Assembly: GCA_964497515.1 (NCBI GenBank)
Contig: CAZCCV010000002.1
Span: forward strand, 62,252 to 126,251
From: an uncultured bacterium
Lineage (GTDB): Bacteria; Armatimonadota; UBA5829; DTLH01
DNA: 64,000 nt
Reading direction: 5' to 3'
Positions 9,075 through 64,000 of the stretch are shown one piece after another (positions within the stretch are counted from its first letter, which is position 1; each line of letters begins with the position of its first letter). The notes beneath the pieces are model-generated. The model was given only the letters and a program-made list of their open reading frames with translations, searched no databases and was not told the DNA's origin. The position numbers and the translations under genes were made by a program.

Positions 9075-9929
9075 ATGCGTATTACCGGACGAACAAAAGT
9101 GCTCTGTATCATTGGGCATCCTGTGGAACACAGTGTCTCGCCTGCAATGCACAATTCGGCGATACATAAGCTCGGTTTGGACTACATGTATGTACCTTTC
9201 AACGTATTGCCCGATGATTTGCCACGCGCTGTAGAATCTATTCGTTCTTTGGGTATAGTTGGCGCTAACATCACAGTTCCGTATAAAGAAGCCGTTATAT
9301 CGCTTCTAGACGAAGTAAGCGAAGAAGCTAGTATGATAGGGTCGGTAAATACAGTAACGAATAGCGGAGGAAAGCTCAGTGGTTCGACCACCGACGGGGC
9401 AGGGTTCGTAAAATCGCTCATAGAGTCGGGATTCTCACCAGCGGGTTCTCGCGCTATCTTGCTGGGGGCTGGTGGCGCAGGGCGTGCGGTAGCTTTTGCG
9501 CTGGCCGCTGCTCACGCGGAGGTTACGATACTGAATCGCGCATCAGGAAAAGCTGAGGTGCTGGCAGAGGATGTGAAACGATCTCTGCCCGGCGCGAGTG
9601 TGAGAGGAGAATCAGGCTACGACACTCTCAAAGAGTGTCTCAAGAGTGCTAATCTACTGGTTAACAGCACCACAGTGGGTATGTCGCCTAACCCAGAAGA
9701 AACTCTTGTTTCTTCTGAACTCATAAGACCAGGGCTTGTGGTATACGATCTGGTATATAACCCTCTTCGCACTCGTTTACTTAGCGACGCTGAAGCTGCC
9801 GGGGCGGTTTCCGTAAGCGGTCTCGGAATGCTTGTGCATCAGGGTGCGATGTCGTTTGAGACTTGGATAGGTGTCGCTCCTTCGGTTTCGACTATGTTGG
9901 CAGGAGCGAAAGCGGCACTGGGTCTGTAA
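9075..9929 (+). CDS. aroE: Shikimate 5-dehydrogenase
   Basis: GHPVEHSVSPAMHNSA, GANITVPYKEAV, GSTTDGAGFV, Rossmann ILLGAGGAGRAVAFAL, LVNSTTVGM. Confidence 0.9.
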   Translation: MRITGRTKVLCIIGHPVEHSVSPAMHNSAIHKLGLDYMYVPFNVLPDDLPRAVESIRSLGIVGANITVPYKEAVISLLDEVSEEASMIGSVNTVTNSGGKLSGSTTDGAGFVKSLIESGFSPAGSRAILLGAGGAGRAVAFALAAAHAEVTILNRASGKAEVLAEDVKRSLPGASVRGESGYDTLKECLKSANLLVNSTTVGMSPNPEETLVSSELIRPGLVVYDLVYNPLRTRLLSDAEAAGAVSVSGLGMLVHQGAMSFETWIGVAPSVSTMLAGAKAALGL

Positions 9930-10152
9930 TTTCATCTGATGCAATAGCTTCCTATTGCTCAGCAGCACACATTTAATGGGAAAAACCGGAACCAGGGGAA
10001 CATTCTCGAACGCTGTGCTGTCAGAAATAAGGAAGACACCGCAACGGATTGCCTCAAATGTGTAAGAAGCCGCGCACTGCAAGAACCGCTTGCGCGCTCA
10101 CTTCTTGACAAATATGTCCTTCACTGGAAAGTATAGGGGTGAATATCTTAAA

Positions 10153-10216
10153 TTCACTCGTCTTTCCAAAATCGTGCTAGAATATACTTGACAACCAGTC
10201 ACTAGGGTGTTAGTCT
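10153..10216 (+). promoter_or_regulatory. Candidate promoters upstream of a ~480-nt leader (extended -10 TGCTAGAAT at 10175..10183; TTGACA 10188..10193 -17- TAGTCT)
   Basis: Read directly from the sequence. No other gene lies between aroE and the PEP-CTERM gene, so transcription from here would make a long structured 5' leader. Confidence 0.3.
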
Positions 10217-10708
10217 GCATAAGGAAGAATGTACCGAGTGCATTGTAGAGAGATCCTCTCGGGACTTCGGAGGTTACCTGGCGCAGTAAGCGCAGGAACT
10301 CCGCTCAGATCTTTGTTAGTTAATTGTGGGTGGCCGGCTCACAGCAGAAAGTGCGGCGCCAGGGAGTGCCGCAGTCCGGAGGAGATTTCGAGCTACACCG
10401 AGTCTTTCGGGCAATCGGGACATTTTTATTCCAGACTACACCTGACCTTCCTAGAACAGGGAGGTGGGGCGCACCGGCGACAAGGCCGGGCGAATGGCCA
10501 GCGGTATTGATGCTTTTCTACCGCAGCAATTGTCTAGAAACCCAACGAAGGGTGCACTACCGGCACGGAAGCCACCAGTTGCGATTAGTGCAGATTGAAA
10601 GCTATTCGTAGTGGGTAATCAGAAAAAGAATAAGTGCTGCTGATAAGATGAAGCACGAGCGGCCGCTAGAGCCGACATTTGCCACAATTCATACAGGAGG
10701 AGAATAGG

Positions 10709-11392
10709 ATGAAAAAGATTCTGGCAGTAGCAATTATGCTGCTGTGCTGCGCTGTGATGGCATCCGCCGACGCGCACAACTGGGTTATCAGCGTAACGGG
10801 TTCAGGCCCATTTGACACGGGTGTAGGTTCGGTTGCTCGAATTGGTACACTCAGCGGTTGGACAGATGGCGTCGATCCCGGCGAGACCTCACTCCCATCC
10901 GCACCACCACTTGGACAGACTTGGGCCTATGCAAGTGCTGTATTCATGGATACTGGTGCACAGACCCTTACCGACTATCGAGCTCCATTCTATCAGGCTG
11001 AAGATCCGATGGCGTCCAAGCTGTGGATGCTCAAGGGCTACTTCATTGCTGCAGATTCCGGCCCACTGCCGATTGTCAAGCTCACCTTCAAACCGACCGC
11101 TGATCTTGAGATCGATTGGGACTATGTAAGCATAGTCATTAGCTGGGCCGAGGGTGCTCTCGACTGGCAGACCGGTCAGTATGTTGCTGGTCAGATGGTC
11201 TTCGACAAGGATAACCCTCTTACCGATGACGGCTGGGCACTGTTCCTGCCGGGCAGAAGTGCTGGCAGAGCTCCGTTGGTATACGTAGAGGCAATCCCTC
11301 AGGCTGTTCCGATCCCTGAGCCAGGAAGCATTCTGGCGCTTGGAACCGGTCTTGTCGGAGTTGTCGGATACGCCGTCCGCCGCAAGCGGTAG
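10709..11392 (+). CDS. PEP-CTERM sorting-domain secreted protein
   Basis: AGGAGGAG RBS then ATG. Signal peptide MKKILAVAIMLLCCAVMASA. C-terminus PIPEPGSILALGTGLVGVVGYAVRRKR is the PEP motif plus TM helix plus basic tail that defines the exosortase/PEP-CTERM sorting signal. Confidence 0.85.
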   Translation: MKKILAVAIMLLCCAVMASADAHNWVISVTGSGPFDTGVGSVARIGTLSGWTDGVDPGETSLPSAPPLGQTWAYASAVFMDTGAQTLTDYRAPFYQAEDPMASKLWMLKGYFIAADSGPLPIVKLTFKPTADLEIDWDYVSIVISWAEGALDWQTGQYVAGQMVFDKDNPLTDDGWALFLPGRSAGRAPLVYVEAIPQAVPIPEPGSILALGTGLVGVVGYAVRRKR

Positions 11393-11408
11393 ATTATTGG
11401 CTGCAAAA

Positions 11409-11442
11409 CCCAAGACTGTTATGGAACAGTCTTGGGTTCTTT
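11409..11442 (+). terminator. Rho-independent terminator after the PEP-CTERM gene
   Basis: CCCAAGACTG-ttatggaa-CAGTCTTGGG, a perfect 10-bp stem, followed by TTCTTT. Confidence 0.6.
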
Positions 11443-11550
11443 GACAGTCATATAATTGAAGATAAATGCAATCAGCATTACCCAGCCATTGCTTATCTTT
11501 GGTTGGGTAATGTTGTAATTTCTGGTCAGTTGAAATCAATAGCTAAGCGA

Positions 11551-11580
11551 TTGCGAGACGATGAGTAGTTCTGGTATACT
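11551..11580 (+). promoter_or_regulatory. Putative promoter of the pilB-pilT-pilC-pilD operon (TTGCGA-18-TATACT, TG-extended)
   Basis: TTGCGA at 11551..11556 and TGGTATACT with TATACT at 11575..11580, about 135 nt upstream of the pilB ATG. Confidence 0.35.
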
Positions 11581-11715
11581 GGATTGTAAGTCTGGTCACT
11601 GATAAGTCTAGATACAAGAATACTGCTGTGAGTGTCGACGGATACTTCGAGCAGAGACCACTAAATCGTGTCAAAGGCTGACCAGGACACACCAGTCCGG
11701 GAGAGGTGTTCAAGT

Positions 11716-14805: not shown

Positions 14806-16032
14806 ATGCCTAGTTTCCAGTATACAGTACGTGATGTAAACGGAACAATGATTCCTGGAACGGTAGAAGCGGACAGCGAAGACTTACTTCGTAGACGTTT
14901 ATCCGAGCAAGGATTCGAAGTTGTCGAAATCAAGGAGACAAAGACCGGCAAAAAGAAATCTCCTGGAACGGGGTTCGGAAGAGTAAAACTGAACGATCTC
15001 GCGGTGTTCTGTCGACAGTTCTCCACTATGATCGATGCCGGAGTCTCGCTTGTACGGTGTCTGGCCGTTCTTGCAGAACAGACGGTTTCTGCGAAGCTGA
15101 AAAGGATCATTTACGATCTACAGGCCGAAGTCGAGGCTGGGCAGACGCTCTCGAGAGCACTCGGAAAGTATCCGAATGTGTTCTCTAACTTGTTTGTCGG
15201 TCTCGTAAGAGCAGGTGAGGTTGGTGGTGTTCTTGAAGAAAGCTTGCAACGTTTAGCAGGATTCCTCGAGAAAGACCAGGAACTCAGGCGAAAAGTCCGA
15301 TCAGCTATGACATATCCAGTCATAGTCATGTTCGTGGCTTTGGGCATAGTTATATTCCTGGTTACCTTCATCCTTCCGAGTTTTATGACTTTGTTCGATG
15401 ACCTTGGTGTAAAGGAGTTCCCTGCTCCTACCGCGCTTCTCATGGCATTTAGCAACTTTTTGACCAGCAAATGGTACATTATGCTGATTGGACTGGTCAT
15501 CTTCGTAGTGGCATCGCGCGCGTTCTTGTCTACAAAAGTCGGTAAACGTTTGTTTGATAGGTTCAAACTGAAGGTTCCGGTTTTCGGAAACCTGAACCAC
15601 AAAATCGTTCTTGCCAGATTTTCAAGAACGCTCGGCACACTGCTTGCATCGGGTGTCCCTATTTTGCAGGCGTTGGAGACTGTCGCAGGGACTGTCTCCA
15701 ACGAGATTGTGAGTGATGCGATTTTGGAGGCTAGAGCTAGGATTAGAGAAGGAGACCGTATTGGAGATCCCCTTCAAAAGAGCAAATTGTTCCCGCCAAT
15801 GGTTGTTCAGATGATCTCGATTGGCGAGGAATCTGGAGCTCTCGACCCGATGCTTGCCAAAGTTGCAGACTTCTATGAATCTGAGGTTGATGCTACACTC
15901 GCGTCCCTTACGTCTGCTATTGAGCCTATTATGATCGTATTCTTGGGTGGTGCGGTTGGATTCATCGTTATTTCGATCTTCCTGCCGTTGATCTCTGTTA
16001 TCACGAGTTTGACTGGTGCTGGAGGCGAGTAG
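14806..16032 (+). CDS. pilC: Type IV pilus inner-membrane platform protein PilC (GspF family)
   Basis: Two GspF repeats, each with conserved cytoplasmic helices and TM segments (e.g., LSRALGKYPNVFSNLFVGLVRAGEVGG and the repeat EIVSDAILEARARIREG...MISIGEESG). AGGAGG RBS. Confidence 0.9.
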   Translation: MPSFQYTVRDVNGTMIPGTVEADSEDLLRRRLSEQGFEVVEIKETKTGKKKSPGTGFGRVKLNDLAVFCRQFSTMIDAGVSLVRCLAVLAEQTVSAKLKRIIYDLQAEVEAGQTLSRALGKYPNVFSNLFVGLVRAGEVGGVLEESLQRLAGFLEKDQELRRKVRSAMTYPVIVMFVALGIVIFLVTFILPSFMTLFDDLGVKEFPAPTALLMAFSNFLTSKWYIMLIGLVIFVVASRAFLSTKVGKRLFDRFKLKVPVFGNLNHKIVLARFSRTLGTLLASGVPILQALETVAGTVSNEIVSDAILEARARIREGDRIGDPLQKSKLFPPMVVQMISIGEESGALDPMLAKVADFYESEVDATLASLTSAIEPIMIVFLGGAVGFIVISIFLPLISVITSLTGAGGE

Positions 16033-36248: not shown

Positions 36249-36334
36249 TGGTGCCGCAGAGAGGAGTTGAACCTCCACGTCCGTAAGGACACATGGTCCT
36301 GAACCATGCGCGTCTGCCATTCCGCCACTGCGGC
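36249..36334 (-). tRNA. tRNA-Leu (anticodon CAG), class II with long variable arm, CCA encoded
   Basis: Reverse complement GCCGCAGTGGCGGAATGGCAGACGCGCATGGTTCAGGACCATGTGTCCTTACGGACGTGGAGGTTCAACTCCTCTCTGCGGCACCA has a 7-bp acceptor stem GCCGCAG/CTGCGGC, anticodon stem CATGG/CCATG with loop TTCAGGA (anticodon CAG), a 15-nt variable arm, T-arm GGAGG-TTCAACT-CCTCT, discriminator A, and CCA. Confidence 0.8.
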
Positions 36335-53127: not shown

Positions 53128-53330
53128 TAATGCTCCCTCTCCAACCCTGCAGAATCACACTGTTTAACCTGCGTAATATGGGCTGGGCATTTGTCGTATC
53201 CCTAGAGAAATCAGCACCTTTTACGTTACCTTTCGGGATTGATGCAAAGTAGTCTGCCAATTCATCGTTTCTATCATGTACCCAAATCTGAGCAGATTGC
53301 CTCACTAATGCTGAGGTTTTTTGTCCAGAA

Positions 53331-53359
53331 TTGACTTTAAATCAACATATCAGTATTTC
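53331..53359 (+). promoter_or_regulatory. Putative promoter for the second PEP-CTERM gene (TTGACT-17-TATTTC)
   Basis: Hexamers read from the sequence; implies an about 200-nt 5' UTR. Lies in the divergent intergenic region shared with the pdh operon. Confidence 0.25.
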
Positions 53360-53556
53360 TAACAGGCTTCTTGCGTGCGCTTGGCACTTTTGGCACGGTT
53401 CTTGCAGAATACTTAATCGTGCTCCGGATAGGATATGAAGTGTGCCTATCGGGAGTCACCTTATCGATGTCCTTACATACAGGGGCAGCGAGCGACGTAA
53501 GGTGGGGCGTTGTGCTGTCCCCATAATTGCTATTTCGGAAAGGAGAGAAATCTACT

Positions 53557-54126
53557 ATGAAGAAGCTGCTTCTTCTTGCGGTCCTGGCCTTCGCACTGGC
53601 TCTGCCGACTATGGCACAGACCGCCGAGCCATTCTTCCAGTTGGATATCGACAACGATCCGTTGACGGCGATCCCTGGACCTGATTATGTGATCGAACTT
53701 GGCAACCACGATGCGAACGGCTTTACAAACGTCAATCTGTTTGCACACGTTGGAATGCCCGGTATGGAAGGCTACCAATTGCAGGCCAAGCAGGTGTCAT
53801 TCCACTACTGGATTTGGCGCAACGACGACCAGCCTGCAAAGGGCAAGTTTGTGGTTGACCACATCTTCCAGCCGAACGACGGTTTTGTGATTTCGCAGTG
53901 GTTTGAGTGGGCAGACATTGCCACCAACAAGCCGTACTGCACATATTTCAAAGTGCAGGCCGACATCACCTTCGAGATCATCGAAAATGGTGATCCGATG
54001 ACCTTCTCGCTGGTGTCCAACGAGCTGACATTCCACGTGGACGTTCCGGAGCCCGGCTCACTGTTGGCATTCGGAACCGGACTGACTGGACTGATCGGTT
54101 TCGCAGTTCGCCGACGCCGAATGTAA
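53557..54126 (+). CDS. PEP-CTERM sorting-domain secreted protein
   Basis: GGAGAG RBS; signal peptide MKKLLLLAVLAFALALPTMA; C-terminus VPEPGSLLAFGTGLTGLIGFAVRRRRM (PEP motif, TM, Arg tail). The track ORF starts at 53527; Met 53557 chosen. Confidence 0.85.
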   Translation: MKKLLLLAVLAFALALPTMAQTAEPFFQLDIDNDPLTAIPGPDYVIELGNHDANGFTNVNLFAHVGMPGMEGYQLQAKQVSFHYWIWRNDDQPAKGKFVVDHIFQPNDGFVISQWFEWADIATNKPYCTYFKVQADITFEIIENGDPMTFSLVSNELTFHVDVPEPGSLLAFGTGLTGLIGFAVRRRRM

Positions 54127-62547: not shown

Positions 62548-62567
62548 GCTCAGAGGCTGAATCAGTT

Positions 62568-64000
62568 ATGGCAGATGATGTAACACTCACAATCGACGGT
62601 TTGCTGATAACAGTTCCCAAGGGCACGCTGCTCATTGAAGCGGCAAAACAGCTCGGAATTGATATTCCGGTCTTCTGCTATCATCACAAGCTCGAACCTG
62701 TCGGAGCCTGTCGACAGTGTCTGGTCGATATTGAAGGTTATCCGAAGCCGCAGGCATCGTGTTCAGTTCCGGTTGCAGAGGGAATGGTTGTGCATACCGA
62801 CACGCCAGGAGTAAAGCAGTATCGACAGAGCGTATTAGAGTTTCTGTTGCTGAATCACCCGCTTGACTGTCCTGTCTGTGACCGGGGCGGAGAGTGTATG
62901 CTGCAGGACAATACTATGAAATATGGTCCGCCAGATTCACGTTTTGAGCAAGAAAAACGCCATTACGAAAAGCCCGTGGCACTCTCAGCACTGGTTGTGC
63001 TCGACCGAGAGCGCTGCATCCAATGCTTTCGCTGTGTCAGATTTCAACGTGAGATAGCTCATCAGCCCGATATACAGATGCTAGACCGCGGATTTGGCGA
63101 TTATATCGCCACCTTCCCTGGAAAACCATTCGAACCCAACTTTTCTGGTAACACAATAGAGCTCTGTCCTGTCGGTGCGTTGCTGTCGAGTGTGTTTCGG
63201 TTCAGGGGACGGCCTTGGGAGCTTTCAAAAACGGAGAGTATCTGCCCCAACTGCGGAGTTGGGTGCAATATCGAAATAAGCGACCGGCGTAAACGGCGTG
63301 TAGTTCGGTATCTGGCTCGCACCAACGAGGAAGTAAATGAGTGCTGGATATGTGACCGTGGGCGCTTCGATTCTCTGTTCATTAACTCTCCTGAGAGGTT
63401 GACGAAGTCTCTTGTCCGCAAGAACGGCGAATTGGTAGAGAGCGATTGGGAAGAAGCCATTTCTGCGGCTATTCAGGGGATGCGTTCTGCAGGCGGGCGT
63501 GCCGGAGCGCTCGGTTCACCCAAGCGTTCGAATGAGCAGAACTATCTTCTGCAGAAATTTATGAGGCTCGCCATTGGTTCTAACCACATAGACTTTTCGA
63601 CAGAACAGCGGCCGGAGGGTATGGCAGATGCTTTGGCTTTAGCTATGAGTTCTGGGTTGCTGAATGGCTCCATTGCTGATATAGCTAGCTCTGATGTCAC
63701 TGTCTCTCTTGGAATGGATATAAGCCGTGATCTGCCTCTCATCGATTTGTGGGTAAAACGAGCAGTTACAAAACTCGGCAGGGAGTTCATATTCGCTTAC
63801 CCGCTTTCTGCGGAGCTCTCTTCATTCGCTTCCATGTTTCTCCCATATAAGCACGGAGACGAGCGTGAGTTCATTCAGTCATTTGCCGCTGCCGTGTCGA
63901 AAGAGGGCTCAAATTCTGCTGCGGGGGTTAGAAGAGAGCAGTTTGAAGAGGTTTTATGCACTATCGAAGGAGCAGACTCTGTAGCACTGCTTTTATCGAG
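62568..64000 (+). CDS. nuoG: NuoG-like 75-kDa Fe-S subunit (2Fe-2S ferredoxin-type + 4Fe-4S domains), 3' end outside the window
   Basis: ATG 62568: ITVPKGTLLIEAAKQLGIDIPVFCYHHKLEPVGACRQCLVDIEG (2Fe-2S), HPLDCPVCDRGGECMLQD (4Fe-4S, His-ligated N7/N5 type), CIQCFRCVRF. Frame still open at 64000. The same N-terminal module occurs in Fdh/[FeFe]-hydrogenase large subunits, so nuoG is assigned by position. Confidence 0.65.
   Translation, partial: MADDVTLTIDGLLITVPKGTLLIEAAKQLGIDIPVFCYHHKLEPVGACRQCLVDIEGYPKPQASCSVPVAEGMVVHTDTPGVKQYRQSVLEFLLLNHPLDCPVCDRGGECMLQDNTMKYGPPDSRFEQEKRHYEKPVALSALVVLDRERCIQCFRCVRFQREIAHQPDIQMLDRGFGDYIATFPGKPFEPNFSGNTIELCPVGALLSSVFRFRGRPWELSKTESICPNCGVGCNIEISDRRKRRVVRYLARTNEEVNECWICDRGRFDSLFINSPERLTKSLVRKNGELVESDWEEAISAAIQGMRSAGGRAGALGSPKRSNEQNYLLQKFMRLAIGSNHIDFSTEQRPEGMADALALAMSSGLLNGSIADIASSDVTVSLGMDISRDLPLIDLWVKRAVTKLGREFIFAYPLSAELSSFASMFLPYKHGDEREFIQSFAAAVSKEGSNSAAGVRREQFEEVLCTIEGADSVALLLS

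Follow-up and report, generated by a model that had tools for sequence, protein, structure and literature searches.

A long non-coding region with a putative structured 5' leader precedes a PEP-CTERM gene in an Armatimonadota-like genome

The 779-nt gap between aroE and a PEP-CTERM gene in the stretch of DNA analysed here (64 kb in length and referred to below as the window), which belongs to an Armatimonadota-like MAG that occurs in the sequencing runs SRR8925752 and SRR8925753, is non-coding DNA, and we read it with moderate confidence as the control region and approximately 485-nt structured 5' leader of a single-gene PEP-CTERM unit. According to this reading, the 258 nt upstream of the promoter (9930-10187) would carry protein-binding sites, transcription would most likely start near 10223 from a sigma-70-type promoter (P1, 10188-10216), the leader would occupy 10223-10708, with its GC-rich middle part (10229-10610) folding into stable stem-loops, and the transcript would run through the PEP-CTERM coding sequence to end at hairpins located at 11407-11513. 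Acting in cis, the leader would affect mRNA stability or translation or serve as a platform for the binding of a regulator, with stabilisation or factor binding as the default guesses. The transcription start, the transcription of 10229-10610 as leader and any regulatory effect are what we infer here. The initial annotation had offered two explanations for the region, a structured 5' UTR regulating the PEP-CTERM gene or an independent ncRNA; the former is now the better supported as far as the leader is concerned, with P1 situated 521 nt from the ATG, no intervening terminator, hairpins at the 3' end of the gene and comparable leaders in the gene family, whereas its regulatory part is a supposition, the ribosome-binding site (RBS) being unpaired in the predicted fold and the sequence being found in no relative.

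The gap (9930-10708) is the longest between long ORFs in the window, and its non-coding character rests on the lack of native codon usage and on the fact that its small ORFs have neither a Pfam hit nor a homolog. A codon-usage log-likelihood trained on 36 genes of the window, which gave a mean of 0.158 for true frames and -0.028 for the best wrong frame, remained below 0.1 across the gap in all six frames, compared with 0.12-0.28 in the PEP-CTERM coding sequence. Two small plus-strand ORFs lie inside the gap (93 and 95 aa); no family was found for them in Pfam and no homolog in 5.8 billion protein clusters, and on inspection of the sequence no RBS was seen upstream of either of them or of a 19-codon ORF described below. 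The gene-free region of about 780 nt proposed in the initial annotation is thus confirmed, as is its view of the two ORFs as devoid of an RBS and unconvincing as genes, and the search for a protein-coding homologue that it had suggested for them, run against the same clusters, returned none.

The middle part of the gap differs from the rest in composition, with 55% GC at 10229-10610 compared with 44.5% in the upstream flank (9930-10228) and 46.9% in the other flank, while other intergenic regions have 40-54%; the GC-rich downstream stretch that had been noticed by eye is therefore borne out. The three GC hairpins that had been named within it are all present on the plus strand, at 10255-10273 (CCTC/GAGG), 10281-10293 (GCGC/GCGC) and 10353-10372 (GCGGC/GCCGC), and among the others in the domain is one at 10445-10465. 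When 10215-10710 was folded as the plus strand, its minimum free energy (MFE) was -180.2 kcal/mol (z -3.65) and none of 100 shuffled sequences was as stable, although the reverse complement scored about equally (z -3.72), the segment ranked 3rd of 64 among 496-nt windows of the same 64-kb sequence and a coding segment of pilC (15215-15710) had a stronger fold z. At the 200-nt scale the GC-rich domain ranked 12th-13th of 638, with coding segments reaching similar values. The folding signal of 10215-10710 is thus real, not exceptional: the suggestion of structure beyond chance holds against shuffled sequences, whereas it is tempered by the equally folding minus strand, the rank and the comparable coding DNA. 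For the 485-nt leader between the start predicted for P1 and the ATG, the two strands were further apart, with z -3.49 (plus) and -2.95 (minus) and energies of -178.9 and -160.5 kcal/mol, the plus strand being approximately 18 kcal/mol more stable.

Upstream of the promoter, the AT-richer part of the gap (9930-10187), delimited by sequence, GC content and the fold of the whole gap, contains several plus-strand repeats visible in the sequence: a hairpin immediately past the aroE stop codon (9941-9958), an inverted repeat of the form GCGC..GCAAG/CTTGC..GCGC (10073-10098), which adjoins a TTGACA at 10105-10110, and an imperfect palindrome, GTGAATAT-ctt-AAATTCAC (10139-10157). The palindrome was aligned opposite the operator of the gene family described below, yet it is a different motif. 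It is possible that these repeats and the palindrome are protein-binding sites. Long-range inverted repeats pairing 9943-10061 with 10568-10688 were also considered and set aside as mutually incompatible and of chance-like quality.

The candidate promoter P1 on the plus strand consists of a -35 element TTGACA (10188-10193), a 17-nt spacer and an extended -10 element TGtTAGTCT (10208-10216), with a predicted transcription start near 10223. A profile of the P1 promoters of the family had its best match in the window at 10186-10228 (nhmmer, E 0.019 for the whole window and 1.2e-4 within the region), the sequence CTTGACAACCAGT around the -35 element is identical to that of the family locus L011 at 13 of 13 bases, and the 521 nt separating P1 from the ATG fall within the family range of 480-701 nt. 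The -10 hexamer (TAGTCT) agrees with the consensus at three of six positions and is weaker than that of the family, and a generic consensus promoter scan of 9800-10900 reported no promoter. On the strength of a modest profile score, 10188-10216 most likely corresponds to P1, the distal promoter in the homologous genes. Of the promoter-like elements placed by the initial annotation at about 10153-10216, TTGACA-17-TGtTAGTCT is thus recovered by the family profile, whereas the generic scan is blank and the other candidate, TGcTAGAAT at 10175-10183, is without support.

The PEP-CTERM gene itself (10709-11392, plus strand) encodes a protein of 227 aa, whose residues 201-226 match Pfam PF07589 with 24.4 bits against a cutoff of 20.7. 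Its codon usage is native and its RBS strong, and the gene is therefore probably expressed. A word-indexed protein search recovered nothing but this one protein, an apparent orphan status that was overturned by an exhaustive HMMER search, which yielded 101 protein matches at E<=1e-3, approximately half of them full-length (200-260 aa, 25-44% identity); judging by these similarities, the protein belongs to a family of small PEP-CTERM proteins of the Armatimonadota. Past the stop codon, two terminator-like hairpins are found on the plus strand, one with a 14-bp stem followed by CUUUG (11407-11438) and one followed by a U-rich tract (11475-11513), and together (11407-11513) they form the most structured segment of the window (fold z -7.25; sliding z -5.3 and -5.8, ranks 1-2 of 638). 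The terminator scan omits both owing to its U-tract criterion; as predicted terminators, they would close the PEP-CTERM gene as a single-gene unit. For pilB, the downstream neighbour, a separate promoter-like site is seen at 11551-11580. No terminator was found after aroE, so that read-through from the upstream operon is possible, and the scan of 9800-10900 gave no terminator-like site.

The upstream neighbour, aroE (shikimate dehydrogenase, 9075-9929, plus strand; Pfam Shikimate_dh_N, E 1.2e-30), has its nearest relatives at 53-59% identity, and in these the gene order is alaS, a gene for a 744-aa protein, ruvX, yceG, a HAD phosphatase gene, aroE, pilB, pilT, pilC and a prepilin peptidase gene. 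In the relatives (L003-L010) pilB directly follows aroE, with 168-342 nt between the two, compared with 1738 nt in the window, made up of the gap, the PEP-CTERM gene and a further 275 nt, and nothing in this interval could be aligned to the aroE loci of the relatives. Because aroE lies directly next to pilB in these genomes, the gap and the PEP-CTERM gene together are a lineage-specific insertion. In the MAG JBDKSP, the contigs that hold genes of the family (L012 and L013) differ from that of its aroE locus (L006), and L013 has a P1-to-ATG leader, indicating that the gene is accompanied by its leader at differing sites in the genome.

Loci were fetched for the homologs of the PEP-CTERM protein and for other Armatimonadota PEP-CTERM genes, giving two cassette alignments (A4 and A5) and a covariance model (R1). 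Upstream of their start codons the homologs resemble one another over 150-670 nt and share a cassette composed of an operator, the 16-bp palindrome CTGGTAATATTACCAG, approximately 17 nt upstream of P1; P1 itself, TTGACA, 17 nt and TGnTAGATT (TTGACAACCA..TGnTAG..T), 480-701 nt from the ATG; a repeat of the operator/promoter arrangement (P2), 289-347 nt from the ATG; and a module of approximately 215 nt adjoining the start codon, which contains a consensus sigma-54 promoter, TTGGCACGAAATTTGCA. RNAalifold predicted three helices in the module (CTTGTGCTC/GAGCACAAG, CCCC/GGGG and GCGAC/GTCGC), for which, in 13 sequences, 95.4% of cells are paired and six pairs have double changes, a result reached by 0-1 of 500 shuffles and compared with 41-50% pairing when the partners were slid. 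This covariation implies that the family leaders are under selection as RNA or as single-stranded nucleic acid. For the P1-P2 interval of the family, RNAalifold found no consensus structure. The family also conserves a further start codon, upstream and in frame ('MSTRISD') and preceded by a Shine-Dalgarno sequence of its own, at the place where the window has the 19-codon upstream ORF (uORF). No Rfam family exists for these upstream cassette regions. Nine P1-to-ATG leaders of the family (444-665 nt) had plus-strand z values from -0.5 to -5.1, eight of the nine being more stable on the plus strand, so a long, well-folding leader is, on these predicted folds, a trait of the family, of which the window would be an ordinary example.

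The window resembles this cassette in its homologous protein (25-44% identity), in a P1 at a comparable distance, in its long folded leader and in an RBS of the GGAGGAG type; unlike it, the window has no operator, P2, sigma-54 promoter or three helices, and a GC-rich domain without detectable homology is found instead. The operator CTGGTAATATTACCAG was searched for with up to two mismatches and is absent from the whole 64-kb window, while it is present in approximately 45 of 134 related loci; P2 has no match; and the best TGGCAC-N5-TTGC candidates on the plus strand of 9930-10708 have three mismatches, on which grounds a sigma-54 promoter for the gene at 10709-11392 was rejected. A search of the window with the module HMM (nhmmer) matched nothing beyond the RBS and the beginning of the coding sequence, and the covariance model R1 aligned 10615-10719 at the flanks and the RBS only, with the helical core deleted (E 0.015). 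The sigma-54 module is found in all other family members examined, and L137 and L138, the closest homologs at 44% and 42% identity, the latter from the same sample, have the full cassette and a different leader. The interval between P1 and the module is similar in length, approximately 390 nt in the window and 360-400 nt in the family.

In the proximal leader (10611-10708, plus strand, delimited by sequence), which ends with the RBS GGAGGAG at 10696-10702, a 5-bp hairpin formed by GUGCU (10634-10638) and AGCAC (10652-10656) encloses an AUG at 10648, from which the 19-codon uORF runs to a TAG at 10705-10707, without a Shine-Dalgarno sequence and out of frame with the main coding sequence. We conjecture that this hairpin and uORF (10634-10656) may be the collapsed remnant of the sigma-54 module of the family. 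Since the RBS is unpaired in the predicted MFE fold, a simple translational switch that works by masking it is not apparent. A CsrA-type binding platform was likewise considered and is unsupported, as the enrichment in GGA motifs is not significant (13 compared with a mean of 8.2, with 6.8% of windows reaching 13).

Several other explanations have to be weighed against the leader model. The one that competes most seriously, which we regard as possible and clearly less probable than a leader, is that the gap is a decayed regulatory spacer, in which the ancestral cassette has degenerated, 10229-10610 is drifted or replaced DNA with an incidental fold and no function of its own, and the real promoter may lie elsewhere, possibly nearer to the gene. 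The absence of the operator, P2 and the sigma-54 module is what such decay would leave, and the matching length of the P1-to-module interval, the alignment of 10615-10719 by R1 as a module with its core deleted, the similar fold z of coding DNA in the window and the alike folding of both strands all point in the same direction. Drift would however be expected to bring the domain towards the 44-47% GC of its flanks, and not the 55% observed, and the 18 kcal/mol by which the plus strand is the more stable also argues against decay, both of them weakly; P1 is well preserved, with the 13 identical bases around the -35 element shared with L011, and the native codons and strong RBS of a probably expressed gene are likewise at odds with it. 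Rather doubtful is the more ambitious proposal that 10229-10610 is a lineage-specific structured cis-regulatory RNA that has replaced the control exerted through the operator, P2 and sigma-54 in the other family members; if true, control would have moved from transcription initiation to the mRNA leader, which would sense a ligand, a protein or temperature.

It is unlikely that the region is accounted for by an independent ncRNA gene, with 10188-10216 as the promoter of a large structured RNA or sRNA whose 3' end would precede the PEP-CTERM gene, even though a GC-rich, well-folding domain of approximately 380 nt in a long intergenic region is the usual signature by which such genes are nominated and a promoter candidate lies directly upstream. 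Rfam 15 at gathering score gave only a tRNA at 36252-36334 in the whole 64-kb window, and at E<=10 the segment 9800-10900 gave only chance matches to mir-15 (20 bits, cutoff 57) and Pinc (17 bits, cutoff 60); the mir-15 match merely reflects a hairpin at 9948-10035. The gap therefore matches no Rfam family, including RNase P, tmRNA, SRP, 6S, the riboswitches and the large ncRNA families OLE, GOLLD, HEARO, ROOL and raiA, in agreement with the earlier comparison by eye with RNase P, tmRNA and SRP RNA, and the Rfam check that had been proposed has thus been carried out with no relevant family found. There is no terminator-like site at 10229-10708 at which an independent transcript could end, no second copy of the gap sequence in the window, no match to plasmids and phages by blastn, and nothing in 136 related loci (including L137 and L138) by single-sequence blastn and nhmmer. 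The 95-aa ORF also served for a tolerant DNA search, by translated scanning of contigs from genomes and metagenomes with six 8-residue peptide patterns that cover one reading frame of 10324-10608; this found no relative and also missed the source genome. No homolog of 10229-10610 was thus found in any locus or collection searched, and P1 is itself homologous to the promoter that drives an mRNA leader in the related genes; the ncRNA half of the original suggestion is accordingly not upheld. Least probable of all, and hardly to be expected, is that the gap hides a small protein gene missed by annotation, or a pseudogene: the 93-aa and 95-aa ORFs do exist on the plus strand, and the conserved 'MSTRISD' start with its Shine-Dalgarno sequence falls where the window has the uORF at 10648, but codon scores are non-coding in every frame, Pfam gives no family, neither the 5.8 billion clusters nor the translated scans contain a homolog, an RBS is lacking, and the window uORF is both out of frame and without a Shine-Dalgarno sequence. 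A frameshifted pseudogene was rejected on codon usage and the protein-cluster search.

Long structured leaders are known to precede genes for envelope proteins, as in the case of E. coli ompA and of pgaABCD, whose leader is bound by CsrA. The leader proposed here has in common with these a long structured form, a downstream gene for a secreted or envelope protein and a strong RBS, whereas there is no relation in sequence or structure and the GGA motifs of the window are not significantly enriched.

A closer precedent is found among the PEP-CTERM genes themselves, of which more than 65% form single-gene operons whose upstream non-coding DNA exceeds 200 nt and contains no missed ORF (Haft, Paulsen, Ward and Selengut 2006, BMC Biol 4:29, PMC1569441). 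The window shares with these operons, as predicted from its sequence, the C-terminal PEP-CTERM signal, the ORF-free upstream DNA of more than 200 nt and, probably, the single-gene layout, and the gap fits a known description of long upstream regions and is not a new kind of element. In the proteobacterial class, a PrsR site is combined with a sigma-54 -24/-12 motif at an average of 71 nt from the start codon, while many of the long upstream regions, within the Proteobacteria as well as beyond, are without the described sigma-54 motif, and many of those beyond belong to other, undescribed classes (PMC1569441). The gene at 10709-11392 differs from the proteobacterial PrsR/sigma-54 class, which has a sigma-54 site of the -24(GG)/-12(GC) type, and its upstream region of 779 nt is at the long end.

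Taken by itself, the window adds one more PEP-CTERM gene with a long upstream region, in a lineage without a sequenced close relative, and the combination of an insertion at the aroE-pilB junction with a lost sigma-54 module provides a natural contrast for the role of the conserved control elements. Also useful is the cassette of the family, absent from Rfam, with its operator, tandem sigma-70-type promoters, helix-bracketed sigma-54 promoter and conserved in-frame N-terminal extension, in which, according to the predicted structure, the covarying helix that brackets the sigma-54 promoter would hide the upstream start codon in long transcripts only. The control of PEP-CTERM genes outside the Proteobacteria was left open by Haft et al. 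(PMC1569441), and the cassette makes this question directly testable.

The window also contains a second PEP-CTERM gene (53557-54126, Pfam E 2e-6), which shares only the sorting tail with the first, the two upstream regions being unrelated. This gene follows the classical sigma-54 pattern: a perfect sigma-54 site, TGGCACGGTTCTTGC, is located at 53391-53405, 151 nt before its ATG, is the only perfect TGGCAC-N5-TTGC match in the window and is recognised by the model R1 (E 1e-4).

aroE and pilB are direct neighbours in related MAGs, with 168-342 nt between them (loci L003-L010, fetched from other assemblies), and compared with these loci positions 9930-11667 of the window constitute a 1.7-kb insertion comprising the leader and PEP-CTERM gene 1. 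In one relative, the JBDKSP assembly, the family genes are located on other contigs (L012, L013). The segment 3' of gene 1, at 11393-11667, is the strongest-folding one of the whole window (z -7.25 relative to shuffled sequences) and includes two long hairpins (11407-11438 and 11475-11513), 3' of which lies a promoter-like site for pilB (11551-11580, TTGCGA-18-TATACT with TG).

Outside the window, PEP-CTERM genes from other Armatimonadota were seen to share a conserved upstream cassette (loci L011, L013, L057-L060, L065, L066, L070, L106, L137, L138 and others), for which there is no corresponding family in Rfam. It consists of a 16-bp palindromic operator, CTGGTAATATTACCAG, adjoining two tandem promoters (TTGACA-17-TGnTAnAnT, about 540-590 and about 290-340 nt from the ATG), and a module of ~215 nt containing a consensus sigma-54 promoter, which is bracketed by a covarying long helix of 9 bp (CTTGTGCTC/GAGCACAAG). 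Further helices of the module are CCCC/GGGG and GCGAC/GTCGC; across the module helices 95.4% of cells are paired, with double changes in 6 pairs. The long helix has its 5' strand upstream of the sigma-54 promoter; it could therefore be formed only in transcripts initiated at the upstream promoters and, once formed, could hide the Shine-Dalgarno sequence and the start of an upstream reading frame.

About 60-100 nt before the start codon of the main PEP-CTERM reading frame (MKK start), an upstream initiation codon in the same frame (ATG, TTG or GTG) is conserved in the cassette loci, as in L011:2905-3000 and L057:2925-3000; it is preceded by GAAAGGGGGAA and encodes M-S/N-T-R-I-S-D. Between the two starts the frame is open in all eight sequences checked and the indels are multiples of three, which suggests an N-terminally extended isoform with ~25-35 residues before the signal peptide. 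Several database proteins (P0123, P0124, P0132, P0133, P0135) are annotated from the upstream start.

In the window, an imperfect palindrome, GTGAATAT-ctt-AAATTCAC, is present at 10139-10157, 30 nt upstream of the -35 element of P1, the candidate distal promoter of gene 1. It occupies roughly the same place as the family operator but one helical turn further away, and its half-sites are unlike the family motif; it may be a lineage-specific operator. The second PEP-CTERM gene of the window (Pfam E 2e-6) lies at 53557-54126, between the pyruvate dehydrogenase E1 genes on one side and a c-di-AMP receptor gene on the other; its protein has only the sorting tail in common with that of gene 1. Upstream of the gene are ~430 nt of non-coding DNA (53128-54126 for both together), in which TGGCACGGTTCTTGC at 53391-53405 is the sole perfect sigma-54 consensus in the window. 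This site is 151 nt from the ATG and is recognised by the covariance model built from the sigma-54 module of the relatives (53376-53440, E 1e-4).

L138 (Logan SRR8925753_248715), from the window organism's own sample, is a homolog of 42% identity that carries the full cassette; it may be either a paralog within that organism's genome or a gene of another Armatimonadota member. Both L137 and L138 are followed, at a distance of 300-330 nt, by a second gene of ~232 aa whose RBS and start region are similar, and the pairs may therefore be tandem paralogs.

Two other long gaps without long ORFs, at 1470-2128 (659 nt, 46.6% GC), upstream of an 894-aa gene which synteny identifies as alaS, and at 62548-63100 (553 nt, 50.8% GC), have no Rfam match at gathering score. 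Inside the pilC-like gene (14806-16032), positions 15201-15400 fold with z -4.4 and positions 15215-15710 have an unusually good fold (z about -5 at 496 nt), stronger than that of the gap upstream of gene 1.
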